Source: a virus (taxonomy: Duplodnaviria > Caudoviricetes). From it: DNA of 55,693 nt. Positions 1,381-53,271 of this stretch are shown one piece after another (the stretch's first letter is position 1; the number at the start of each line of letters is the position of its first letter). Where the stretch lies: the IMG/VR virus record IMGVR_UViG_3300030109_001698, positions 1 to 55,693 of that record; one strand, 5' to 3'. Both the position numbers and the translations under genes were made by a program. A model generated the notes under the pieces. It ran no database searches. It was not told the origin of the DNA and saw nothing but the letters and a program-made list of their open reading frames with translations.

Positions 1381-1411
1381 TATTATCCATTAGTAATCGT
1401 ATTCAATCCGT
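1381..1411 (-). promoter_or_regulatory. Early promoter-like motif copy 2
   Basis: TATTATCCA-ttagtaa-TCGT-attcaat-CCGT; overlaps the 3' end of ORF 1390..1683. Confidence 0.8.
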
Positions 1412-1683
1412 AATAGATCACGGTTCTCTTCAGACATAACTTCTAAATTATAAATGTAGTTTTCGTAATGACTAGAATCTACTCTTTCACTCCAAATATC
1501 TTCATTCATCCATTCTATTATGTCTTCACAAGTATTTATATTTTCTCTAATTACATTTTCAATCTTATAGTTTTGTAGTACGTTATTTAATTCTTTATCA
1601 GTTTGAACAAAGAACATACATATTACCCCGATAGTAAAACCAAATATACCACCTATTATTGTTGTTTGTGTTTCTATTTTCAT
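1390..1683 (-). CDS. Membrane-anchored hypothetical protein (97 aa)
   Basis: N-terminal TM (IIGGIFGFTIGVICMFFV), acidic helical tail. Confidence 0.75.
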   Translation of the reverse strand: MKIETQTTIIGGIFGFTIGVICMFFVQTDKELNNVLQNYKIENVIRENINTCEDIIEWMNEDIWSERVDSSHYENYIYNLEVMSEENRDLLRIEYDY

Positions 1684-1694
1684 ATTTTTTTTAT

Positions 1695-1913
1695 TTAGTC
1701 AATTTCATCACAGTTTTCACACTCATCTTTATAATATTCATTAATTAAACTATCTCTTTCGTACATATAATCTATCCATAGTTTATCTAGTTTATAGTTT
1801 ATTTTAACTTGTTTCTGTGTTACTTGAGTAGTTCCACAACTCATCATCATTAGTCCTAAAACTAAAGATATCCACGTTATTATAAATATATTTCTACTTT
1901 TTCTTTCACTCAT
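1695..1913 (-). CDS. Putative lipoprotein (72 aa)
   Basis: Basic N-terminus, hydrophobic stretch, lipobox-like MMS-C-GTT. Confidence 0.65.
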   Translation of the reverse strand: MSERKSRNIFIITWISLVLGLMMMSCGTTQVTQKQVKINYKLDKLWIDYMYERDSLINEYYKDECENCDEID

Positions 1914-4138: not shown

Positions 4139-4363
4139 TTATCTACAGAATGTTGGAATGTTATTTGTATTTGTGTATGACTTATACTTCTTGAAACAGT
4201 TCATAGATTCAAATCTATCTTTATTTCTTTCATACACTTCATCATGGTTGTAAGTAACTTCTTTACCTTTCTTAGTAGTGAATGTGATGATTGTGTTTGT
4301 ACCAATTAGAGATTTTCTGATTACAAATCTTTTAGTAATAATTTTGTTTAGTTTAGTTTTCAT
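4139..4363 (-). CDS. Basic early protein, paralog of 2811..3062; first gene of the minus arm
   Basis: Aligns by eye to 2811..3062. Confidence 0.85.
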   Translation of the reverse strand: MKTKLNKIITKRFVIRKSLIGTNTIITFTTKKGKEVTYNHDEVYERNKDRFESMNCFKKYKSYTNTNNIPTFCR

Positions 4364-4401
4364 AATTTATTTATTTATTTAATTAATATTCTATTCATAT
4401 A

Positions 4402-4432
4402 TATTATCCATCATCAGTCGTCACTGCTCCGT
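4402..4432 (-). promoter_or_regulatory. Early promoter-like motif copy 8
   Basis: TATTATCCA-tcatcag-TCGT-cactgct-CCGT. Confidence 0.8.
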
Positions 4433-4439
4433 GTCTATG

Positions 4440-4785
4440 CTATACATCAGGAGCGGGGGACATTTCCTGAAACATTTGATGGAACATCTATTTGTAGTTG
4501 TTGAGGTTAGATACATTAGTGACTAGATATTACAGGAGCAAGAAGCCAAACGAATAATAAGCAAATCTGTAGGAACCAAAGCGGGGTGGGCAAAAAAAAT
4601 CAATTTCCCTTTTTCAAAAAAAGCGGGGAGGATAGGAGCAGCACCCTACCCCTATATTTATAATGTACTTTTTTTTAGAAGGGCCGCCCCTTTTTATAGA
4701 AGGTACCGTTAAATATAAGCGGGCTATGTTAAATAAAGAAATTAACATGTAATTATTAGTATTAATAACACAAAGACAAGAAATT
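4440..4785. other. Non-coding divergence region with AGCGGG repeats; candidate genome terminus, packaging site or origin
   Basis: No ORF; strand switch; AGCGGG at 4452, 4580, 4622, 4718; A/T tracts. Confidence 0.45.
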
Positions 4786-5244
4786 ATGGGTTATACACCG
4801 TTCAAGATGAAAGGACCTTCTTTATATAATAGTCCAAATAAAAAATTTAAGAATGTAAGTAAAAAAGTATCTAAGGCTATGAAAGATGCTGAAAAAGGAT
4901 ATTCTACACTAGATGCTTTCAACGATGAAGGTAAAATAAGTAAGGTGGACATTTCAAATAGAATGCTAGACAAAGAAATAGAAAGAAGAAAGAGTGGAGG
5001 TAAAGTAGGGACGGTTTCGTCTCCTGGTGATGAATATATGAAGAAACTAAACAGAAAAGATCGAAACGTACACTATGACCCAAAAAATAATACACAATAT
5101 AGAACGTTTCACGACAAAAAAAACAACATGGTCTACATGCATAATAGAAACGCGTTACTAGGTGAAAAAACCGTGGATCATCCTAAATATGGCCCTCAAA
5201 CTACTGGAGAATATAAAGATATAACAGGTAAGAAAGGAAAATAA
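4786..5244 (+). CDS. Basic protein with FKMKG/SPxK leader
   Basis: MGYTPFKMKGPSLYNSPNK. Confidence 0.8.
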   Translation: MGYTPFKMKGPSLYNSPNKKFKNVSKKVSKAMKDAEKGYSTLDAFNDEGKISKVDISNRMLDKEIERRKSGGKVGTVSSPGDEYMKKLNRKDRNVHYDPKNNTQYRTFHDKKNNMVYMHNRNALLGEKTVDHPKYGPQTTGEYKDITGKKGK

Positions 5245-5474
5245 TGGCCGAAAAACGACCAGGTAACTCACAAGGGCTTAGTCCAACAGCTTTAAGAGCT
5301 AAACGAGCAAGAGACAAAGCTGCGGCTATGACCACTAAAAGAAAAAATAGAAAAGCAGAGAATCAGAGGATAGGACAAAGACCAGATAGTGATCTACATC
5401 ACACATCATCAGGTACAGTAAAAAGAACATCGATAGCTTATAACAGAGCGACACACGATAGAAAAGAAGTATAA
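5244..5474 (+). CDS. Small basic protein, possible degenerate HNH-like motif
   Basis: Arg/Lys rich; DLHH...YNR; coupled via TAATG. Confidence 0.65.
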   Translation: MAEKRPGNSQGLSPTALRAKRARDKAAAMTTKRKNRKAENQRIGQRPDSDLHHTSSGTVKRTSIAYNRATHDRKEV

Positions 5475-9853: not shown

Positions 9854-10097
9854 TCATTATATAATAATTGAACAAGTTAAAGAAGGGCCTAAAAAAGTTG
9901 GTGGATTAATTTTAACTGATGAAATTAACGAAGATAATAGATATTTAAAAGGTAAAGTAATATCTATTGGTAATTTAGTTCAAGGTATAAAAGAAAACGA
10001 TACTATATACTACGATAAACACGCAGGCCACGGTATACAACATAAAGATAAATTTTACGGCGTTATAAAACAACAAGATGTCGTGCTTATAGATTAA
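9840..10097 (+). CDS. groES: Co-chaperonin GroES (Cpn10)
   Basis: 85 aa, GGLILT mobile loop, GKVISIG; adjacent to groEL. Confidence 0.9.
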   Translation: MKAVNHYIIIEQVKEGPKKVGGLILTDEINEDNRYLKGKVISIGNLVQGIKENDTIYYDKHAGHGIQHKDKFYGVIKQQDVVLID

Positions 10098-10170
10098 ACC
10101 TAAACCTAAAACTTAAAACCTAAAACTTAATACAATTAACCTAATTATTAACTAAAAACACTTAGAAATT

Positions 10171-10539
10171 ATGATGCAAAATCCAAAAATGGTAATGCTT
10201 TATTTTCAAACTGGGGACGGTGTAAACGATGGTGCTGATGAAGGATATGCAGCTCCGTTATCAAAGTTCAGAGGTTTTAAATTTATTGCTGATACCGACG
10301 CGATTGAAATGCAATTTGATAGTATGCTTGGTACTGGTGCTGATATAGCAGCGGTAGACAAAGTTGTACTAAACATAACTGCAGCTAAGCAACATTTACT
10401 AATTGCAGACATTACTGCGGCTATTAATGGCCACAAGTACGGTGATGGTTTTATTACTATCGCTGACGACGCTACAAGTACTTATGTATCTTCTTACATT
10501 AGCTCTTGTGGAGCAATTACAGTAACTGCTGCTGCTTAA
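10171..10539 (+). CDS. Hypothetical, possibly virion protein (122 aa)
   Basis: ORF track; Ala/Asp/Thr rich, codon usage like the capsid gene. Confidence 0.75.
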   Translation: MMQNPKMVMLYFQTGDGVNDGADEGYAAPLSKFRGFKFIADTDAIEMQFDSMLGTGADIAAVDKVVLNITAAKQHLLIADITAAINGHKYGDGFITIADDATSTYVSSYISSCGAITVTAAA

Positions 10540-10545
10540 TCTTAA

Positions 10546-10986
10546 ATGAGATTAACAGCGCAAGATTTGCGTGAAATGAACATCCTTAAGTATTACAGGC
10601 TCACTAGAAAGTGGGCTTGTAAGACTTACGGATTAACAGACGCAGATTTAGAATTATTAATTTATTTAGATTGTAAAGGAAGATTTACACGACAAGAGTT
10701 TATAGACGGGGTTTATACTATGAGTTGGGATAAAAACCGTTGGGAAAGACTTAGAAAGAAAGGCTGGATAGAAGTTTGGAGACACAGAAACAGAACAACA
10801 ATAAAGTACTCGGTATTTAAAACATCATTTAAGTGTTCTCAGTTAATAAGTAGAATATACAGGGTGTTGTTAGGCGAAGAAGATTTGCCAGTATCAGAAA
10901 GAAGTACTTTTTATAACAACAAATCATATACAGACAAGGTTTATAATAAAGCTATAGATGATATGATTAAAGACAAAAATAGATAA
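10546..10986 (+). CDS. Putative winged-HTH (MarR-like) DNA-binding protein
   Basis: YGLTDADLELLIYL...RLRKKGWIE pattern. Confidence 0.6.
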   Translation: MRLTAQDLREMNILKYYRLTRKWACKTYGLTDADLELLIYLDCKGRFTRQEFIDGVYTMSWDKNRWERLRKKGWIEVWRHRNRTTIKYSVFKTSFKCSQLISRIYRVLLGEEDLPVSERSTFYNNKSYTDKVYNKAIDDMIKDKNR

Positions 10987-10987
10987 T

Positions 10988-11380
10988 ATGGCATTTAAAC
11001 TAGGAAGTAAATCAAGTCCTTTAATGGACAAGGGACAGTTAAAAGGTAGTTTATCTTTTAAACAAGATGAGTCATCTATACCTGGAACACCTGTTTTACG
11101 TAGAAAGTTAGATGGTGGCGTATTGGGAGAGGCTAATAAAGATGGATCCATATTTATCAGTGAGAAAGTAGAACCAGGTAGTGATGAAGAAAAACAAATT
11201 CTTATACACGAAATGGTACACATGACAGATATGAAAACTGGAAAATTAGGATATACAGACGAAGCTATAGAATATATGGGGCAAACGTTTCCTAGACACA
11301 AGGGTCACATACTGTATAATGACCAATGGCTACCAGAAGGTAGCAAAGAATTTCCTTGGGAAAGAATGCCTTGGGAATAA
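10988..11380 (+). CDS. Small zincin-like metallopeptidase with leader variant
   Basis: ILIHEMVH (HExxH), downstream PWE; starts MAFKLGSKSSPL. Confidence 0.75.
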   Translation: MAFKLGSKSSPLMDKGQLKGSLSFKQDESSIPGTPVLRRKLDGGVLGEANKDGSIFISEKVEPGSDEEKQILIHEMVHMTDMKTGKLGYTDEAIEYMGQTFPRHKGHILYNDQWLPEGSKEFPWERMPWE

Positions 11381-11391
11381 AATAATAAATT

Positions 11392-11784
11392 ATGAATATA
11401 TTAGGAAAAATATTTTCAGGAGGAGCTACTGAATTAGTGAAAGGTGTAGGTGGCGTTATAGATAATCTACACACGTCTAAAGAAGAAAAGCTCGAAGCTG
11501 AAAAAAAAATTAAAGACATGATAATGGGTTACGAGGCTCAAATGCAAAAAGAGGTTTCAGATAGATGGAAAGTAGATATGAACTCAGACTCTTGGTTATC
11601 AAAAAATATAAGACCTTTAGTGCTTATATTTCTAGTTGTAGCAACAGTGTTAATGATATTTATCGATGCTGGTGTTATTGCTTTTGAAGTAAAAGATACT
11701 TGGGTTGATCTATTACAATTAGTATTAATAACTGTGATCGGTGCTTACTTCGGTGGTAGATCACTAGAAAAAGTAAAAAAATAA
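11392..11784 (+). CDS. Holin, 3TM (GTA-holin-like)
   Basis: SDSWLSKNIRPL, two C-terminal TMs, YFGGRSLEK. Confidence 0.8.
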   Translation: MNILGKIFSGGATELVKGVGGVIDNLHTSKEEKLEAEKKIKDMIMGYEAQMQKEVSDRWKVDMNSDSWLSKNIRPLVLIFLVVATVLMIFIDAGVIAFEVKDTWVDLLQLVLITVIGAYFGGRSLEKVKK

Positions 11785-45141: not shown

Positions 45142-45426
45142 ATGGCAAAAGAATTAAATGAAGACACGGGCTTCGTATTAAGTATAAAAACAATAATAGG
45201 TTTAGGGTTTGCAGTAGCTACATTGGCTGGTATGTGGTTTACGTTGCAGGCAGATATAGCTGAAGCAAAAGAGCTACCGGTAATCCCACCGGATGAGGTT
45301 ACTAGAATGGAGTTTGACATGAAAGATCAAATGATTCGCCAGACTATTATGACAACTCAAGAAGACGTTACTGAAATTAAAGAAGATATGAAGCGTATTG
45401 AAGAAAAAATTGATAAATTAAGATAA
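45142..45426 (+). CDS. Single-TM coiled-coil protein
   Basis: TM IIGLGFAVATLAGMWF; C-terminal heptads. Confidence 0.8.
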   Translation: MAKELNEDTGFVLSIKTIIGLGFAVATLAGMWFTLQADIAEAKELPVIPPDEVTRMEFDMKDQMIRQTIMTTQEDVTEIKEDMKRIEEKIDKLR

Positions 45427-45432
45427 AATTAA

Positions 45433-45795
45433 ATGGAAAATACAGACGTCACATGGAGAACATTTAGTGTATATATGTTAGTTTTGCTTTTTATGTTGTT
45501 TGCTGGCGGCGTTTTTGGTCAAATAAAAGTTGTACACTTTAACGCAGAATGGAATAAAAACAACGGTGCTGATTGGATTATGTCTTTAAAAGACTGTAAT
45601 ACTAAAAGTTATGTTGATATAGCTAAAGACCCAGAAGCACAAAAAAAATATAAAATAGCAGTTGTACCTACAATTATAATATTTAAAGACGGGGAAGAAG
45701 TCGCTAGATTTCAAGCTGATTTAAGTTTTAAGTTGTTAGCAACTAGAGAAGAAGTACAAGAAGAAATAGACGAACAATTAATGAGCGATTTTTAA
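45433..45795 (+). CDS. Exported thioredoxin-fold protein lacking CxxC
   Basis: Signal ending VFG|Q; VVHFNAEWN, YKIAVVPTIIIFKDGEEVAR. Confidence 0.8.
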   Translation: MENTDVTWRTFSVYMLVLLFMLFAGGVFGQIKVVHFNAEWNKNNGADWIMSLKDCNTKSYVDIAKDPEAQKKYKIAVVPTIIIFKDGEEVARFQADLSFKLLATREEVQEEIDEQLMSDF

Positions 45796-45796
45796 T

Positions 45797-46159
45797 ATGG
45801 CATATACACAAAAAAATAATCCTTTTAAAGTTACAAGCTGTGGCAGAAGAAGAACCTTTATGTGTGGAGGTAATCCAGGCGATGACAGAACAAAATCAAG
45901 TCCTTTTGCTAGTAGAGAACCTAGAAAAACAACAAAGGGTAAGGGTCGTAATTTTAGAACAACAGAAGAGGGTGCCGGTATGACAGCTAAAGGTGTTGCT
46001 GAGTACAAACGTAAAAACCCTGGCAGCAAGTTAAAAACAGCTGTCACAGAAAAAAATCCTTCTAAAAAAGATGCTGCTAGAAGAAGATCTTTTTGTGCTA
46101 GATCGAAAGGTTGGAAAGGCGAAAGAGGTAGAGCTGCTAGACGTAGATGGAAATGTTAA
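45797..46159 (+). CDS. Basic phage protein
   Basis: NPGSKLKTAV...RRRSFCAR...RWKC; N-terminal NPFK...SSPF. Confidence 0.8.
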   Translation: MAYTQKNNPFKVTSCGRRRTFMCGGNPGDDRTKSSPFASREPRKTTKGKGRNFRTTEEGAGMTAKGVAEYKRKNPGSKLKTAVTEKNPSKKDAARRRSFCARSKGWKGERGRAARRRWKC

Positions 46160-46179
46160 ATAAATAAAAAATATATAAA

Positions 46180-46326
46180 ATGAGAAATGCACCATTAAAA
46201 GGTTTAATACACAAATCTTCACCTTTAACAAAAAAGGGACCTTGTTGGACTGGTTACGAAATGATAGGCATGAAGAAAAAGGGAGGTAGAACCGTTCCTA
46301 ATTGTGTTCCTAAAAAGAAAAAATAA
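46180..46326 (+). CDS. 48-aa basic protein with CWxGY...VPNCVP motif
   Basis: Translated by hand: MRNAPLKGLIHKSSPLTKKGPCWTGYEMIGMKKKGGRTVPNCVPKKKK. Confidence 0.75.
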   Translation: MRNAPLKGLIHKSSPLTKKGPCWTGYEMIGMKKKGGRTVPNCVPKKKK

Positions 46327-48525
46327 ATGAAAAAAATACTTCTGCTATTGTTATTACCTATAATAACCTTTGCTCAAAAAGAGGTTATTATACATATAAA
46401 AACAGATAGTTATCCAGGGGAGACTAAATGGACTTTATATAAAGACGCTTATCAAGGAGATACATTAGCGTTTGTTAATTATGGTCATTATACATCTGTT
46501 AGCACTATGAATAGTGATACTGTTTATATTCCAGATAGTATAACTAATATATCTTGGGTTATATTTGATCAATATGGAGATGGTATAACTAATGGCGAGT
46601 ATTACATTACTATATGTGGTGATACAATAGTTAATTATCCTGCTAGTACTTTTACCACGGGATTAATACATAACAGAGTTGTACCACAGTGCATGCCGCA
46701 ACCACCACCACTACAAATGGTGCCTGCGAAAGTTATAATAAATTTAGATCAATATCAAAGTGAAACAAGTTGGGATATAAAAGATACAAATGGAACAACC
46801 TATGCTTCTGGAAGTGGTTATAACGCTCAACCTGATTACGCTACTATAGTTATTCCAGTTCAGATACCAAAAGGACCTTTAGTATTTACTATATACGATA
46901 CTTATGGAGACGGATTAAATGGTAGTTTATGGCAAGGACAAGATGGTTCTTATTATTTAAAACAATGTAATGATACATTAATATATGGAACTGATCCTGC
47001 GTTTGGTAATGATACTTCGCATGTATTTGTTTCTGATTCTTGTCCACCTATATTAGGATGTACAGATGATGATTACGTAGAGTGGAACCCTTTTGCAGAT
47101 GTAGACGATGGTAGTTGTCAGACTTTGAAAATATTTGGGTGTACAGATAGCACAATGCACAATTACGATCCAAATGCTAATACAATGGAACTAATAGATA
47201 CCTGTGTTTATACGTTAGTATTACATGATTTAATGGGTAATGGCTGGGTAGGATCTCATTTAAAGTTAATACATCCTGACACATCGTACCAATTTACTCA
47301 CGCCGGTGGATTTGACGATGTATATTATGTAGGATTAACTGCGCCAGACCCTGTTACGTTTAGATTCCACATATCTTCACAAGCTAGTTTAACAACAATA
47401 GAATGTGGCTTTACTTTTATAAATCCAGAAGGCGATACACTTATAAGTATACAACCTCCGTTTATACAGCCTTTATTACCATATCACATTATAACAAATT
47501 GTGGCAACACTTGTGAAGAAAAAGTTTTTGGATGTTTAGATCCGTTAGCTATTAATTATGACAGTGTTGCAAACACCAGTGATAGTAGTTGTTATTACAC
47601 ACCTGGTTGTACTAATTCTTCGTATTTAGAATATTATACCCAAGGATTTGTAGCTGACTATGATGATGGTAGCTGTATTATAAAAGCAGTGTGGGGATGT
47701 ATGGATAGTACAGCTTTTAATTATGATTCAACTGCAAATATAGACAACGGAGGGTGCGTTCCGGTTATATATGGGTGTATGGAAAGTTTGGCATTTAATT
47801 ATGACCCATTAGCAAATACGCCTGATACGTGTATAGCATACTTGTACGGTTGTACCGATCCCACAATGTTTAATTATAATCCATTAGCTAACTCTGACGA
47901 TGGAAGTTGTATTGCTTTTGTTTATGGCTGTATGGATTCTACAATGTTTAATTATAATCCTTTAGCAAATGCTTCTAGCAATCTCGTTCCTTGTATTCCT
48001 TATACTTATGGTTGTACTGACCCAAGTATGTCCAACTATAATCCAGAAGCTAATACAGAAGACTTTAGTTGCGTACCATTTATTTATGGGTGTATGGATT
48101 CTACTGCTCTTAATTACGATTCAACTGCTAATACGGACAACGGTTCTTGTATCGAAATTGTTACGGGTTGTATGGATCAAAACGCTTGGAATTACGATAT
48201 CTTGGCGAACGTCCACGATACTAGCTCTTGTCTTTATGACGCTGGTTGTGTTACTGGGCCTGGTAATCCTTATTGGTTAAACGATCCTTGTTACGAGTGG
48301 GTAATATTAGTTGATGAGTATTGTTGCGAAAATGAGTGGGACACAATTTGCCAAGCTACGTACAATCATTGTAAAGGAACTTGGACAGGCCCATTGCCAA
48401 AAAGATTAGATAAAGAATTATTAATGGTAACAGATATATTAGGTAGACCAGCAAAGCCGGGTAATAATAAAATATTGTTCTTTATATATAGTGACGGAAC
48501 AGTAGAAAAGAGATTAACAAAATGA
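46327..48525 (+). CDS. Secreted Cys-repeat protein with T9SS-like C-terminal domain
   Basis: Signal TFA|Q; 11 GCxD repeats; C-terminus TDILGR...FIYSDGTVEKR. Confidence 0.85.
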   Translation: MKKILLLLLLPIITFAQKEVIIHIKTDSYPGETKWTLYKDAYQGDTLAFVNYGHYTSVSTMNSDTVYIPDSITNISWVIFDQYGDGITNGEYYITICGDTIVNYPASTFTTGLIHNRVVPQCMPQPPPLQMVPAKVIINLDQYQSETSWDIKDTNGTTYASGSGYNAQPDYATIVIPVQIPKGPLVFTIYDTYGDGLNGSLWQGQDGSYYLKQCNDTLIYGTDPAFGNDTSHVFVSDSCPPILGCTDDDYVEWNPFADVDDGSCQTLKIFGCTDSTMHNYDPNANTMELIDTCVYTLVLHDLMGNGWVGSHLKLIHPDTSYQFTHAGGFDDVYYVGLTAPDPVTFRFHISSQASLTTIECGFTFINPEGDTLISIQPPFIQPLLPYHIITNCGNTCEEKVFGCLDPLAINYDSVANTSDSSCYYTPGCTNSSYLEYYTQGFVADYDDGSCIIKAVWGCMDSTAFNYDSTANIDNGGCVPVIYGCMESLAFNYDPLANTPDTCIAYLYGCTDPTMFNYNPLANSDDGSCIAFVYGCMDSTMFNYNPLANASSNLVPCIPYTYGCTDPSMSNYNPEANTEDFSCVPFIYGCMDSTALNYDSTANTDNGSCIEIVTGCMDQNAWNYDILANVHDTSSCLYDAGCVTGPGNPYWLNDPCYEWVILVDEYCCENEWDTICQATYNHCKGTWTGPLPKRLDKELLMVTDILGRPAKPGNNKILFFIYSDGTVEKRLTK
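47056..48235 (+). repeat. Coding repeats GC(T/M/L)D-x4-NY-x2-AN-x-D-x-GSC, 11 copies
   Basis: Counted in the translation; 2 plus 9 copies separated by a globular domain. Confidence 0.85.
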
Positions 48526-49640
48526 AAAAACTATTACTATTATTACTAACTATTTTAATGTCTTGCGCCACTACAAAAACTTGTTGTGGACAGTTTAGTT
48601 ATAAAGGTTATGATTATGATATTCAAGATATTTTAAAAAATCAATTAAAGTTCTCTACTATATACGGAGCGGTAAACGGTGGTACATCTATATCTGACAT
48701 TAAACAGTTTTCAGTTATAGACGGTTTACAAACATCAATGATAGAAACTCCTTATGATTATTCTTTTACTTTAGGTATAAGAAAAATTGCAAGGTTTGGA
48801 TATGAAAATAAAGCCCAAACATTTTACGATGGTACAGAATCTAACTACACAGACGCTGCTACTGTAGGTAAAGTACAGGGTTTTGAATATTTATTTGAAA
48901 TAGACTACGCTAGACAGCAGGGTTTAGATTATATAGACCAACATCATTTTATTAGATACAGTTCTGATGATAATTGCGATGGACCTTTATGTATAGATCA
49001 CTTCGCTGCTAAAGTAGAATATTTAAAAGATGGTTTCGCTGATGTAGAGTATTTCGAGTTATCAGAAAGGTATAGATACAAGAAAGACAAAAACTTAGCG
49101 TTTAGTATAGGTGCTGCGCATAGACTGGCAGAGCCATACGGTTATGATCCGCTAAAAGAATGGATCTTGGATAATGGCAATTTGCATTACACTTACTTAG
49201 CAATACAAGAGGGGTATACGATAGATGTAGCAAATAGTGAGTATAAAGATCCAAGCGGAAACACCGTTGCTAACAGTGCTGACGTTTGGAAAGAAGTTGT
49301 TATACCACAAGTACTAGCGGATTATACTACAAGAAAAAGAAACGAATTAAGTAGAGTTATACAGCATTCATTGGTGATAGGTTTTGATTACTATAACTAC
49401 AGTAAGAGTTATTGGTTACATGCTTGGGGTAATTTACTACCTTACCACTACAACGATGGTAGTGAGTTTAGCTATCATAATTATATAGACGAAGATCAAT
49501 GGTATGATTATTCTGGTGGAATTATATTTGGTAGAAAGTTAGATAAACAATTAGGTATATTTGCAGAAGGTAAATATAATAAGTATTGGAATAGAGAATG
49601 GTATGATTTTAAGTTTGGCGTTAACTATATAATAAGATAA
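48522..49640 (+). CDS. Putative outer-membrane beta-barrel protein
   Basis: Signal peptide; Tyr/Gly-rich alternating strands; ends YDFKFGVNYIIR. Confidence 0.7.
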   Translation: MKKLLLLLLTILMSCATTKTCCGQFSYKGYDYDIQDILKNQLKFSTIYGAVNGGTSISDIKQFSVIDGLQTSMIETPYDYSFTLGIRKIARFGYENKAQTFYDGTESNYTDAATVGKVQGFEYLFEIDYARQQGLDYIDQHHFIRYSSDDNCDGPLCIDHFAAKVEYLKDGFADVEYFELSERYRYKKDKNLAFSIGAAHRLAEPYGYDPLKEWILDNGNLHYTYLAIQEGYTIDVANSEYKDPSGNTVANSADVWKEVVIPQVLADYTTRKRNELSRVIQHSLVIGFDYYNYSKSYWLHAWGNLLPYHYNDGSEFSYHNYIDEDQWYDYSGGIIFGRKLDKQLGIFAEGKYNKYWNREWYDFKFGVNYIIR

Positions 49641-49642
49641 CA

Positions 49643-50164
49643 GTGTTTCAAGATTTTAATATAAAACCGTACTTAAATAAAAAACCGCCTAATGATAATT
49701 CTATAACTACAAAAGGTGAAATAAAAGAATTAGTTAATATACCTATTAAAGAAAATTTTATAAAAGAAAAAGATGATATTAAAAAATCTTTTAGTAAAAT
49801 TGTACCAGAAGATAAATTAATACAAAAACTTATTGATGAGTCCGCTCCTGTTATAATTAAAATTAAAAAACATCACAATAGGCCTAGACCTAAAGTGATA
49901 GCTAAAAAACTAAAGACAAAAATGCAAGACATGGAAATGGCCTCAATGAAAACACCGTCATATCCATCTGGTCATTCAACGCAAGGTTATTTAATAGGTA
50001 TGGTGTTAAGTGATAAATATCCACAAAAGAGAGATAAACTAATGAAAAACGCTAGAGATATATCTTATAGTAGAAGAGTAGCACATGCTCACTATAAATC
50101 AGATTCTTTGTTTGGCGAAAGAATAGGTAGAGATATGTATCAGCATATAAAAAATAAAACATAA
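49643..50164 (+). CDS. PAP2 / vanadium-haloperoxidase-superfamily phosphatase
   Basis: KKHHNRPRP, PSYPSGHS, SRRVAHAHYKSD; GTG start. Confidence 0.88.
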   Translation: MFQDFNIKPYLNKKPPNDNSITTKGEIKELVNIPIKENFIKEKDDIKKSFSKIVPEDKLIQKLIDESAPVIIKIKKHHNRPRPKVIAKKLKTKMQDMEMASMKTPSYPSGHSTQGYLIGMVLSDKYPQKRDKLMKNARDISYSRRVAHAHYKSDSLFGERIGRDMYQHIKNKT

Positions 50165-50168
50165 TATT

Positions 50169-51101
50169 ATGGCATACTATATGAAAGGAAGCCCAATTAA
50201 ACGGGGTGAAATACAATCAAAAGATTTATTAAACAGTGTTAGAAGTAATCCTTTAAAAACAATGCACGACAAAAAAACCTATACTATACCTGCAGACAAC
50301 ACCGGTGGAGGATGGCATGGTACAAACACTTATGTTCCACCGTATCCAACGGAAGGAGAAGGAATTAGTTACATTACGAGTGATGATGGGAAAAAATACC
50401 CTATCAAAAAAATGGAACTCAAAAATAATGTAGTGGTGGGTTATCCACCTATGTTTGGTAGAGGTAAAGTTCTTAAATACGGTAAAGACATATTGAAAGG
50501 AATTTATAATTATTTCAAAAATCCTGGCAAGACTAAAAAAGTAATAGATGCTGTAAAAAGCGAAGCTAGTTTAATAAAAAACGTTCCTTCACAGGTTACA
50601 AAAAACGTAAAGACTTTTGTTACAAAAAATCCAGGAAAATCTGCTGCAGCTGGAACCTTCGTTGTTGGTAATAAAACTTTAGATGAGTTAGAGAAAATAA
50701 CTGAGAAAAAACAAGATAAAACTAGTGCTGAAGTTGGTGATATACTAAATAGTGAACGAACAGTTTACGAAATAGCCGTTGATAAAGCGAAAGATGAAGG
50801 TGTAGATCTTCGTAAAATTATAAGCGAAAGAGATAATATTCAAATGAATGTAGCTAGTGAAAATTTTGATTTAAATTTTAAAAATGTTGATGGTTGGAAA
50901 AATTACAGAAGTGATATAAAAAATGCAGAAACTCTTAGTAAAATTTACAAAATAGCTAATCAAAACAAAGATTACAAGTTAAAGAAAAGATATATAGATA
51001 AAATGTATACAAGTGTCAAAGGACAAAACGATCCGAACATAACACAAGACACAACAGGAGGAGGTGCTTGGAATATGGTTCCAATAGATATTACGTATTA
51101 A
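50169..51101 (+). CDS. Protein with leader variant
   Basis: MAYYMKGSPIK. Confidence 0.78.
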   Translation: MAYYMKGSPIKRGEIQSKDLLNSVRSNPLKTMHDKKTYTIPADNTGGGWHGTNTYVPPYPTEGEGISYITSDDGKKYPIKKMELKNNVVVGYPPMFGRGKVLKYGKDILKGIYNYFKNPGKTKKVIDAVKSEASLIKNVPSQVTKNVKTFVTKNPGKSAAAGTFVVGNKTLDELEKITEKKQDKTSAEVGDILNSERTVYEIAVDKAKDEGVDLRKIISERDNIQMNVASENFDLNFKNVDGWKNYRSDIKNAETLSKIYKIANQNKDYKLKKRYIDKMYTSVKGQNDPNITQDTTGGGAWNMVPIDITY

Positions 51102-51112
51102 AATTAAAATTT

Positions 51113-51607
51113 ATGAAAAATATAAGTAAACATATTAGCTGGCATGAAGGAACCTACAGCAGAACAGGAGATAGAAGAGGTTTAGATAACACTCCTAATG
51201 AAGAACAAATTAAGTGCATGAAAGAAGTTGCTGAAAATTTGTTTGAACCATTGAGAGAGTGGGTAGGTGGACCTATAAAAATAAATAGCTTTTTTAGAGG
51301 TGAACCAGTTAACACCGCTATAGGTGGTAGTAAATACTCTCAACATATGAAAGGCCAGGCTATAGATATGGATGATACTTTTGGACACAAGACGAACGCA
51401 GAGATGTATCATTATATAAAAGATAATTTAGATTTTGATCAAATGGTTTGGGAATTTGGTACTGAATATCCTAATGGTAACCCTAACTGGGTTCATATTA
51501 GCTGGGTATCAGATAGACCAAATAGAAAACAAGAAGTTATTGCTATTAAAAAAAATGGCAGAACTAAATATATAAAAGATATTGAAGAGTACTTAAAAAA
51601 TAAATAA
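51113..51607 (+). CDS. Peptidase M15 family endolysin
   Basis: INSFFR, N..IGG, SQHMKGQAID, WVHIS; ATG at 51113 preferred to the track start at 51068. Confidence 0.88.
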   Translation: MKNISKHISWHEGTYSRTGDRRGLDNTPNEEQIKCMKEVAENLFEPLREWVGGPIKINSFFRGEPVNTAIGGSKYSQHMKGQAIDMDDTFGHKTNAEMYHYIKDNLDFDQMVWEFGTEYPNGNPNWVHISWVSDRPNRKQEVIAIKKNGRTKYIKDIEEYLKNK

Positions 51608-51965: not shown

Positions 51966-52370
51966 ATGGCGACAACTACAGCAACATTAACTATAAATAG
52001 CACAGATCTTTTAACAGATGAAATATCTTTGTCTACAACTTCAACGCTTACAGGTGCTGGTAATTCTACTGGTCTAACTGGTACTACTGGTTTAGCTAGA
52101 AAAACAGTAGCAGGAGCACACGGTCAATACACTTTGTTTGATGGATCAGATTTTACAGCTGATAAGGCTCATAAATTATATTTAAAAAATACTTCAACAA
52201 CAGCAACTGAATATTTTTTAATAACAGTTAACGCAGAAGACGTAGGGAGACTTTACGCTGGTGATTGGGCTTTAATACCTTGGTCAGCGCATGATAATGA
52301 CTGTGACATTAAAATAGACCCTAGCGCGAACGATATGACGTTAGAATATATGTTATTTACAGACGGATAA
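51966..52370 (+). CDS. Virion protein, paralog 1 of 3
   Basis: MATTTA...GRLYAGDWALIPW...LEY. Confidence 0.8.
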   Translation: MATTTATLTINSTDLLTDEISLSTTSTLTGAGNSTGLTGTTGLARKTVAGAHGQYTLFDGSDFTADKAHKLYLKNTSTTATEYFLITVNAEDVGRLYAGDWALIPWSAHDNDCDIKIDPSANDMTLEYMLFTDG

Positions 52371-52397
52371 AATTAATAATAATAAATAAAAAACAAA

Positions 52398-52832
52398 ATG
52401 GCGACAACAGCAACGATTACATTAACGAGTGCGGACATTGCTGGTGATCCAGTAAATGTCTCAAAAACTGCTACCTGTACAAAAGCAGGTACAACAACTG
52501 ATTTAGACCAATCAACTGGATTAAGTAGAGTTCACTTAAGATCTACAACCAACAAAGTATTACTTGCAGCTAACGCAGAGGGTAATGATTTAGCAGCTAA
52601 GGTTTATATAATAAACAAAGCTACAGATCCTACACTTTATGTTACTATAACTATTAATGCTCAAACTGTTGGTAAACTTTATGCGGGAGATTGGATGTTT
52701 ATTCCTTGGAGTCAAACAGATACTTCTGCTAGTATAGAAATAGCTGCGACTAACTGGACGGCATCAACAGGGGATATACCGATTGAGTATGCTTTATTCC
52801 ATGAAGATACAGATCTTTTAACTGACGCGTAA
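52398..52832 (+). CDS. Virion protein, paralog 2 of 3
   Basis: MATTAT...GKLYAGDWMFIPW...IEY. Confidence 0.8.
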   Translation: MATTATITLTSADIAGDPVNVSKTATCTKAGTTTDLDQSTGLSRVHLRSTTNKVLLAANAEGNDLAAKVYIINKATDPTLYVTITINAQTVGKLYAGDWMFIPWSQTDTSASIEIAATNWTASTGDIPIEYALFHEDTDLLTDA

Positions 52833-52863
52833 AATAAATTATAAATATTAAAAATTAAAAAAT

Positions 52864-53271
52864 ATGGCAACAACAACTGCAGCAATTAGCTTGTCTAGTG
52901 ATGTTACTGATAATACTTTATCGGTTTCAAACGAAGCTAATTTATATACAGCTGGTACTACAACTGGTTTAAACACAATGACTTCTGTTACTAAGGTTTT
53001 AGCTAGCACAAACCAGGTTGATTTAATTACAACTGGTAGTGTTTCTACTACTCATGGTTATGTATATATAAATAATCCTGATGCTGATAGTACTAGACAT
53101 TTTAAAATAACAATAGGTAACGCTGGAACTGGTTCTCCAACTGATACTGAAGAAATAGGTAGACTTTACGGTGGTGATTGGATGTGGTTTCCTTGGGATG
53201 TAGATGATGATATTTGCATTACACCAAGTGATTCCAGTAATATGACTGTAGAGTATATGGTATTTAGTTAA
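52864..53271 (+). CDS. Virion protein, paralog 3 of 3
   Basis: MATTTA...GRLYGGDWMWFPW...VEY. Confidence 0.8.
   Translation: MATTTAAISLSSDVTDNTLSVSNEANLYTAGTTTGLNTMTSVTKVLASTNQVDLITTGSVSTTHGYVYINNPDADSTRHFKITIGNAGTGSPTDTEEIGRLYGGDWMWFPWDVDDDICITPSDSSNMTVEYMVFS

Follow-up and report, generated by a model that had tools for sequence, protein, structure and literature searches.

Spanins are seldom recognised in phages of Bacteroidota, and precedents exist for phage outer-membrane proteins, for phage-borne type IX secretion system (T9SS) cargo and for thioredoxin folds without Cys. Phage-encoded T9SS cargo was reported in 'Cryophage' (PMC7468147) and in gut phages (PMC6949934), T9SS cargo accompanied by a cognate outer-membrane shuttle gene was described (PMC12618676, PMC9143113), and the Bacteroidetes Q-rule for signal cleavage (PMC5837995) was also remarked for phage proteins of Porphyromonas (PMC10367356). 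The present analysis concerns a 4.5-kb module of four genes, here named A, B, D and E (45142..49640), in the IMG/VR virus record IMGVR_UViG_3300030109_001698 (Duplodnaviria; Caudoviricetes), which was analysed whole and is referred to as the window (55,693 bases; CheckV completeness 94%). The genes encode a putative membrane-anchored protein (A), a predicted exported thioredoxin-fold protein (B), a large Cys-rich exported protein (D) and a predicted outer-membrane barrel (E). E, A and B form the conserved core of the module and D is its variable cargo.

A search with E gave 40 viral loci, and A, B, D and E were all present in 35 of these; the remaining five were cut by contig ends 0–682 bases past the last module gene (E or a cut A). 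A preliminary description of the window, made from its sequence, had proposed that the four open reading frames (ORFs) cluster meaningfully, and had named beforehand a lack of co-occurrence elsewhere among the outcomes that could refute it. The ORFs were found where it had located them, their clustering is beyond chance, and they do occur together in the 35 loci just mentioned. A hydropathy scan flagged 19 ORFs of at least 35 residues, many of them short frames within larger genes, with four in the module. Two arrangements were distinguished, A-B-(inserts)-D-E as in the window (14 loci) and E-A-B-(inserts)-D (21 loci), the inserts being a DUF6321 protein (C), a 48-residue ORF and a PAP2-type phosphatase, which are variably present among loci. 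A adjoins B in 35/35 loci, with 5–78 nt between the matched stretches, and in the window the end of D (48525) and the start of E (48522) overlap by 4 bases. One locus (L016) holds two copies of E, at 4270-5361 (before A) and 10001-11065 (after D), and thus has both known positions filled.

The preliminary description had treated the four genes as equal parts of one unit, and in this respect it was not borne out. Two complete genomes (G002 and G003) contain no D homologue and keep E, A and B at about 31–52% identity, in the order giant gene, E, A, B, M15 endolysin in G002 and E, an unrelated exported protein of 252 residues, A, B in G003. The large terminase (TerL) of both is 78% identical to that of the window; E, A and B therefore evolve much faster. 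Among 15 long TerL-related records E was detected in nine, including all three of those at least 90% complete. A lipobox-type N-terminus moves among the proteins, being found on E, on B (L042) and on D (L019).

At 90% identity the families comprise 3756 clusters for E, at least 5371 for D and 5694 for B (B homologues at E-value ≤ 0.001); the E family forms 302 clusters at 50% identity. The module families were seen only on phage-sized contigs, and ten distant E clusters were all located on contigs of at most 43 kb. No significant match to Pfam, PHROGs or NCBIfam was obtained for A, D and E of the window or for 29 members of the E family. For homologues of E and D the sources give gene-call coordinates or 'hypothetical protein' as the only names; the Joint Genome Institute calls some B homologues thioredoxin. 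When 50,697 deposited phage records were searched by tblastn, A, B and E gave no match, and D matched through its repeats only. The module is thus abundant, with thousands of clusters at 90% identity, yet unannotated.

B, D and E are predicted to carry Bacteroidota-type Sec signals. The residue after the likely cleavage site is Gln in 25/25 homologues of B, 38/40 of D (the other two are truncated) and 23/29 of E, so that the Bacteroidota pattern which the preliminary description had read from the window is borne out for all three proteins.

B is, as judged by profile comparison, a thioredoxin-fold protein without the redox motif. It matched the Pfam thioredoxin model PF00085 with an E-value of 7.8e-5 (23.1 bits, cut-off 23.5), and a profile of 25 homologues matched 168 PDB sequences at E-value ≤ 1 (best 1.2e-6); among the 60 PDB matches listed, most are thioredoxins by name and the rest are glutaredoxin-like, thioredoxin-domain or designed proteins. 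In place of WCxxC, B has W40-N41-x-x-N44 (W-N-K-N-N), in which both Asn are invariant (25/25), and none of 36 aligned sequences has Cys at the CxxC positions; the Trp and the cis-Pro loop are retained. The proposal of a redox-dead thioredoxin with the WNKNN motif therefore held. A signal-peptidase I type site without lipobox was found in 36/36 sequences of the first alignment, and a lipobox on B in L042 only. With proteins of the TrbC/TraF type (PF09673/TIGR02742) B shares an exported thioredoxin fold without redox Cys, and it matched these models weakly (E-values 0.021 and 0.0014); it differs in scoring far under their cut-offs and in standing nearer to true thioredoxins, with its Trp, cis-Pro loop and two Asn.

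A has a single N-terminal hydrophobic segment (residues 11–29, by hydropathy), in agreement with its earlier designation as a transmembrane (TM) protein. In the alignment of 24 homologues this segment is followed by a Pro-rich linker, which differs in length by up to about 20 residues, and by a conserved, charged C-terminal part that was judged by eye to be helical or coiled-coil; the region beyond the membrane segment measures ~57 residues. A matched no Pfam or NCBIfam family. Weak PHROG matches were obtained within the A family to phrog_1009 (9/24) and phrog_12220 (8/24), and three of the 24 members weakly matched Rz-like spanin PHROGs (E-values 6e-4 to 0.03).

E is predicted to be an outer-membrane barrel of the 12-strand type. 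Its AlphaFold2 model had a pLDDT (predicted local distance difference test) of 75 and a pTM (predicted template-modelling score) of 0.70, and all Foldseek matches listed (E-value ≤ 6e-5) were outer-membrane barrels. The best matches in the full fold library were the 12-strand barrels EstA (Z 13.6), Tsx (13.5), KdgM (13.4), NanC (13.0) and NalP (12.6), aligned over residues 38–372. Model, fold matches and the 4-base overlap agree with the initial view of a beta-barrel gene overlapping the stop of D. E differs from these barrels in being only 8–13% identical to them, in an insert of ~75 residues (204–278) that holds helices and varies among homologues, and in its restriction to phage-sized contigs. 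Unlike autotransporters (type Va), to which its likeness is confined to the fold, E consists of the barrel and the insert and lacks a passenger on its own polypeptide. None of 29 E-family members matched a Pfam family at E-value ≤ 0.1, thus neither PF11751 nor the autotransporter model PF03797, and the window gave no match at E-value ≤ 10 to the PorP_SprF (PF11751) and Phage_OMP models. A lipobox-like Cys with two more Cys behind it occurs in the window E, and 44 of 120 close homologues share it; 75 of the 120 have a plain cleavage site. The window E ends in Arg behind an aromatic-rich last strand; of the 120 homologues, 71 terminate in Phe, 45 in Arg and 3 in Tyr. In distant E homologues the insert (alignment columns about 330–400) has loops rich in Asp, Asn and Gly, of the DxDxDG kind, which look like calcium-binding sites and are absent from the window E. 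A joint structure prediction of E (24–372), B (31–120) and A (36–94) gave a score of 0.00 and, having been run without controls, is uninformative either way.

D (46327-48525) has 732 residues with 35 Cys and contains a Sec signal and 11 Cys-bounded units (C-x17-21-C), as expected from its description as an exported Cys-repeat protein. At least 90% of 40 homologues retain Gln17, the residue after the predicted cleavage site. The number of repeats differs among homologues, whose lengths range from 622 to 1121 residues; in about 15 loci the match begins at about residue 130, the N-terminal domains being swapped. The AlphaFold2 model of D is good in parts only (mean pLDDT 63), and its best fold matches were generic: a Ca-dependent carbohydrate-binding module (2xhh, Z 7.5) and PLAT/C2-like domains (Z 6–7.2), with Foldseek returning C2 arrays of ferlins at a template-modelling score of about 0.1. 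The architecture of modelled domains and repeats suggests a binding or adhesin-type protein.

The preliminary description had further called D a T9SS-type cargo, and for the window protein this did not hold. In its Sec signal, its Gln at +1 and its large modular passenger D resembles T9SS cargo of type A. However, the window D gave no match to the sorting-domain models of type A (PF18962, TIGR04183) or of type B (TIGR04131, at E-value ≤ 1). The best 120 D homologues comprise 101 with the window-type tail of ~40 residues, which these models do not recognise, 18 that end in a canonical T9SS domain where the window tail sits, and one truncated sequence. Against 25 short tails, PF18962 matched none, TIGR04131 none at E-value ≤ 10, and TIGR04183 one (E-value 0.3). 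When the short tail was compared with the canonical tails by hhalign, the probability was 3.4% and only the last 13 columns were aligned; the short tail is about half as long as the T9SS sorting domain. PF18962 was present in 7/7 canonical-tailed relatives tested (five above the cut-off) and in 0/2 short-tailed ones. Among 43 related virus records it exceeded the cut-off in four, on ORFs of D-homologue length (610 to 1126 residues), and for one of these the match was verified with the D protein; in an Atlas protein cluster with 433 viral members it occurs in 95%. The two tail types exchange at one junction, directly after the conserved Cys-rich segment, and a profile of the short tail, run over all frames of the loci, gave 34 matches, all of them D homologues. 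These domain matches indicate that the D family is T9SS cargo in part. The tail of the window D being unrecognised, its surface export is putative. This natural swap of a T9SS domain for a tail of 40 residues within one family constitutes a ready-made experiment on the T9SS signal.

D and E were also compared with T9SS cargo of type B and its PorP/SprF shuttle. Likenesses are that D adjoins a barrel gene, with the overlap described above, and that E follows D in 14/35 loci; differences are that D has no type B domain, that E is not PorP_SprF and that E is kept without D. None of the papers returned by the literature search describes the module, its E-A-B triad, the phage-only barrel family or the swap of T9SS domain and short tail.

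Table 1 Positions of the module genes, the parts of D and the neighbouring or related features in the window
Feature	Position	Strand	Basis
A, 94 residues	45142..45426	+	ORF; hydropathy; alignment of 24 homologues
B, predicted exported thioredoxin-fold protein, 120 residues	45433..45795	+	Signal peptide ending FG before Q; profile and alignment
C, basic DUF6321 protein, 120 residues, no signal peptide	45797..46159	+	PF19846, E-value 4e-13; phrog_10346
Cys-containing mini-ORF, 48 residues, between C and D	46181..46326	+	Read from sequence
D, predicted signal peptide, residues 1–16, cleavage before Gln17 (FA before Q)	46327..46374	+	Sequence
D, predicted beta-sandwich domains 1 and 2, residues 18–120 and 130–237	46378..47037	+	AlphaFold2 block, pLDDT 65–90, mostly > 76
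D, Cys-bounded repeats 1–2, residues 245–293	47059..47205	+	Cys spacing
D, predicted beta-sandwich domain 3, residues 292–392	47200..47502	+	Block pLDDT about 76–85
D, Cys-bounded repeats 3–11, residues 403–635, C-x17-21-C	47533..48231	+	Cys spacing
D, conserved Cys-rich segment with helices, residues 641–685	48247..48381	+	Invariant Cys/Trp columns; model helices
D, C-terminal tail, ~40 residues, three predicted strands	48403..48522	+	Alignments
E, predicted outer-membrane beta-barrel of 12-strand type, 372 residues	48522..49640	+	AlphaFold2 model; fold matches
PAP2-type phosphatase	49643..50164	+	PF01569, E-value 2.4e-8
M15 peptidase endolysin, likely start ATG 51113	51068..51607	+	PF08291 (Peptidase_M15_3), E-value 5e-12; phrog_894, E-value 1.8e-26
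Holin candidate, 130 residues	11392..11784	+	PF11351 GTA_holin_3TM, E-value 1.6e-4, 22.6 bits, cut-off 24.8, whole profile covered
Adjacent ORF pair, 72 residues (lipobox-like) and 97 residues (TM-anchored)	1390-1913	-	Hydropathy, sequence

Beyond 4.7 kb, almost every gene of the window is on the plus strand, and among these genes are those for GroEL, the large terminase, the portal, virion proteins and giant proteins with 2118 and 2378 residues. General family scans found no integrase or lysogeny genes. Its TerL matched 87 deposited phage records at 46–64% identity, of which 86 have a host on record (Flavobacterium 68, Cellulophaga 15, Tenacibaculum 2, Maribacter 1). The closest match (MW202828, 64%) is an uncultured freshwater podovirus with no host recorded; its late operon stops at the giant gene, and the envelope module is absent from it. 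At least 600 TerL relatives were found in IMG/VR, the best 80 at 76–87% identity, and the window phage is a member of a large, uncultured clade of marine podophages. Since the TerL relatives infect Flavobacteriia and the signal peptides obey the Bacteroidota Gln rule, Flavobacteriia are most likely the hosts of this clade. Six further module loci (L042–L047) were located on contigs binned in metagenome-assembled genomes labelled Parvibaculum, Flavobacteriales, Nitrosopelagicus, Rickettsiales and Maricaulis. They are probably phage contigs mis-binned into these public genomes, and the labels are too mixed for a host to be named from them.

The window stretch was present in two DNA sequencing runs of a single study. 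In one metatranscriptomic library, contigs of relatives that are 85–95% alike cover the four module genes and the endolysin, and one of these contigs runs from the end of E into the start of A; as RNA libraries can contain DNA, these contigs do not show transcription of the module. A sigma-70 scan, made with a tool that lacks Bacteroidota promoters, gave 83 sites against 81.9 expected, and a terminator scan of the window gave 10 against 8.1 expected; both are uninformative.

Tentatively, and at rather less than an even chance, we prefer to read the locus as a late envelope module that exports a binding protein and holds it at the cell envelope. This display reading is favoured because D is built like a binding protein, relatives of D are T9SS cargo, D and E overlap, and the pattern of a cargo with its cognate barrel is known. 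From the observed folds, signals, conservation and gene order we infer localisation, partners, timing and purpose as follows. The genes lie in a long late operon together with virion and lysis genes and would, from this position, be expressed late, the products presumably acting on the envelope of the infected cell. B, D and E would cross the inner membrane via Sec and be cut before Gln, like host proteins; E would then insert into the outer membrane and A would stay tethered to the inner membrane. B may serve as a periplasmic thioredoxin-fold protein that is capable of binding and performs no redox chemistry, and the disulfide-rich D would fold in the periplasm. In relatives whose D ends in the canonical sorting domain, D would exit through the host T9SS; in the window, the short alternative tail may keep D at the envelope or route it there, possibly through the co-encoded barrel E. 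The outcome would be a surface altered late in infection, e.g. by adhesion or receptor masking. Flavobacteriia are major degraders of marine algal matter, and their phages shape carbon turnover. If the display reading holds, phages would change the adhesion of their hosts to particles and to one another.

Several findings weigh against display. E, A and B exist without D in two complete genomes, and the core thus needs no D. E appears to belong neither to PorP/SprF nor to another Pfam family. The window tail is not recognised by T9SS models of type A or B, and D could remain periplasmic; its fold matches are generic (Z ≤ 7.5), so that 'adhesin-like' describes its architecture. Late expression is read from gene position only. 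Lastly, the module adjoins lysis genes in most relatives, which fits lysis equally well.

Lysis is the main alternative, and we regard it as possible, if somewhat doubtful, that E, A and B, whether joined by D or not, perform or control the last envelope step. Two forms are possible. A, as an inner-membrane anchor with a periplasmic helix, might act like an i-spanin that is linked via B to the barrel E, so that three proteins take the place of a spanin pair; or A and B might be a holin with one transmembrane domain and a periplasmic antiholin, as are T and RI of phage T4. The neighbourhood was surveyed in 30 of 49 loci, chosen because their sequence extends 2.9 kb or more past the module, after exclusion of three near-duplicates. 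A lysis-type ORF was found 34–3452 nt downstream of the module in 22 of the 30 (M15 in 13, DUF5675 in eight, PG_binding_1 with Amidase_2 in one), and of the remaining eight, four (L005, L023, L039 and L045) have a GTA_holin_3TM-like ORF 7–1321 nt downstream (21.8–26.4 bits, cut-off 24.8). In the window itself the M15 endolysin begins about 1.4 kb past E, in keeping with the initial remark that an endolysin is nearby. DUF5675 fills the slot of the M15 endolysin in L015, L019, L020, L025, L028, L030, L035 and L131, and this alternation in one slot suggests that it is an alternative endolysin; a sequence comparison of DUF5675 with the PDB gave no relative. L043 has the order D, E, A, B, PG_binding_1 + Amidase_2 endolysin, and as in G002 the endolysin follows E-A-B: the enzyme type changes and the neighbourhood stays. 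Because endolysin and holin-like genes adjoin the module so steadily, lysis carries more weight than the preliminary description had allowed, although its two proposals, remodelling of the cell surface and a spanin-like step, both stand.

The proteins themselves point both ways. In favour of lysis, A is laid out apparently like an i-spanin (N-terminal TM segment, variable linker, a part that looks helical), and three of 24 A members weakly matched Rz-like PHROGs. The tight A-B pair and the adjacent endolysin in most relatives are further likenesses to Rz/Rz1 spanins. Lysis genes often diverge fast, and E, A and B diverge faster than TerL. Unlike in Rz/Rz1, however, the partners of A would be a thioredoxin-fold protein and a barrel, not a small lipoprotein, and the PHROG matches are weak and limited to these three members; we know of no spanin with either fold. 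B carries a signal-peptidase I site and not a lipobox, except in L042, and A reaches only ~57 residues beyond the membrane. D, of binding type and 622–1121 residues long among homologues, has no obvious part in lysis. The role of DUF5675 as endolysin is itself deduced from its alternation with M15, and neighbourhoods in related genomes are not independent evidence.

Separate candidates for lysis functions in the window also speak against this role. The ORF at 11392-11784 is, by its profile match, the likeliest holin of the window, and A as a holin, taken as the sole reading, was set aside for this reason. In the ORF pair at 1390-1913, the 72-residue ORF combines a lipobox-like Cys with pairs of Cys at the C-terminal end, and the 97-residue ORF has an N-terminal TM segment and an acidic remainder. 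The pair matched no family and could be a spanin-like or exclusion pair, which makes the statement that no standard spanin pair is evident unsafe. If lysis is nevertheless the function of the module, it would fill the outer-membrane gap in the exit of Bacteroidota phages.

Display and lysis are not fully exclusive, as E-A-B could be linked to lysis while D is a separate cargo. A more far-reaching idea, which we consider rather unlikely, is that E-A-B is a phage-private, three-part device spanning the envelope, which either replaces the spanins of Bacteroidota phages or shuttles or anchors short-tailed cargo that lacks the canonical T9SS signal. Phage envelope machinery would thereby gain a new class, represented in the genomes of thousands of marine phages.

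Superinfection exclusion or receptor masking is decidedly unlikely. According to this alternative, the barrel and its partners, joined by D in genomes that have it, deny related phages their receptor or their path of DNA entry, or might keep progeny from sticking to debris, as the lipoprotein Llp of phage T5 does. It would suit exported, fast-evolving proteins, the swapped N-terminal domains and varying length of D and the long, variable insert of E, and outer-membrane proteins are common among predicted phage structures. Such genes are, however, usually early or lysogenic, and the module lies in the late operon of a window among whose identified families no integrase or lysogeny genes occur; nothing connects the module proteins to a receptor.

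That the four are unrelated accessory genes in a shared variable region, with no joint function, is very unlikely. C, the 48-residue ORF and PAP2 do come and go between the module genes, D is absent from two genomes and the gene order is rearranged, as would be expected of such a region; against this stand the invariable adjacency of A and B, the retention of E-A-B down to about 31–52% identity, and the signal style shared by the three exported products, among which the lipobox-type N-terminus is exchanged. Least probable of all is a nutrient channel, with E as a specific porin that increases the uptake of nucleosides, sugars or phosphate during infection and A and B as helpers, since the fold matches to Tsx (nucleosides), KdgM and NanC and the porin-like phage proteins in BFVD are offset by autotransporter barrels scoring in the same Z range (fold does not tell function), by a late-operon position that argues against uptake, and by A, B and D being left unexplained. 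A virion component was dismissed as unlikely, since B, D and E bear cleavable export signals.

Further genes around the module were inspected as well. C is an insert between B and D whose position varies among loci, and it stands outside the exported set. Its C-terminal half is 69–78% alike, at the DNA level, in the pelagiphages HTVC027P and HTVC028P and the Methylophilales phage Venkman, and in PHROGs the DUF6321 domain forms the C-terminus of much longer proteins. The DNA at 46181-46326 is about 79% alike in the cyanophages S-T4 and S-CREM1, and this stretch is therefore shared among unrelated marine phages. The PAP2 protein of the window has all three signature motifs and neither a signal peptide nor a TM segment. 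It is a variable neighbour, which L016, L032 and L033 have between B and D; its G003 counterpart, with 288 residues altogether, has a longer C-terminal part fused to it. At 51966-53271, three paralogous Thr/Ser-rich proteins of 134–144 residues follow in a row; they matched no family, and relatives differ in how many copies they have and where. The crAss-type tail ring proteins 1 and 2 (PF24228 and PF25702, E-values 1e-36 to 1e-59) are encoded a few genes past the module in L023 (15821-17854) and L039 (13634-16185), and these profile matches link the marine clade to the crAss-like tail architecture.

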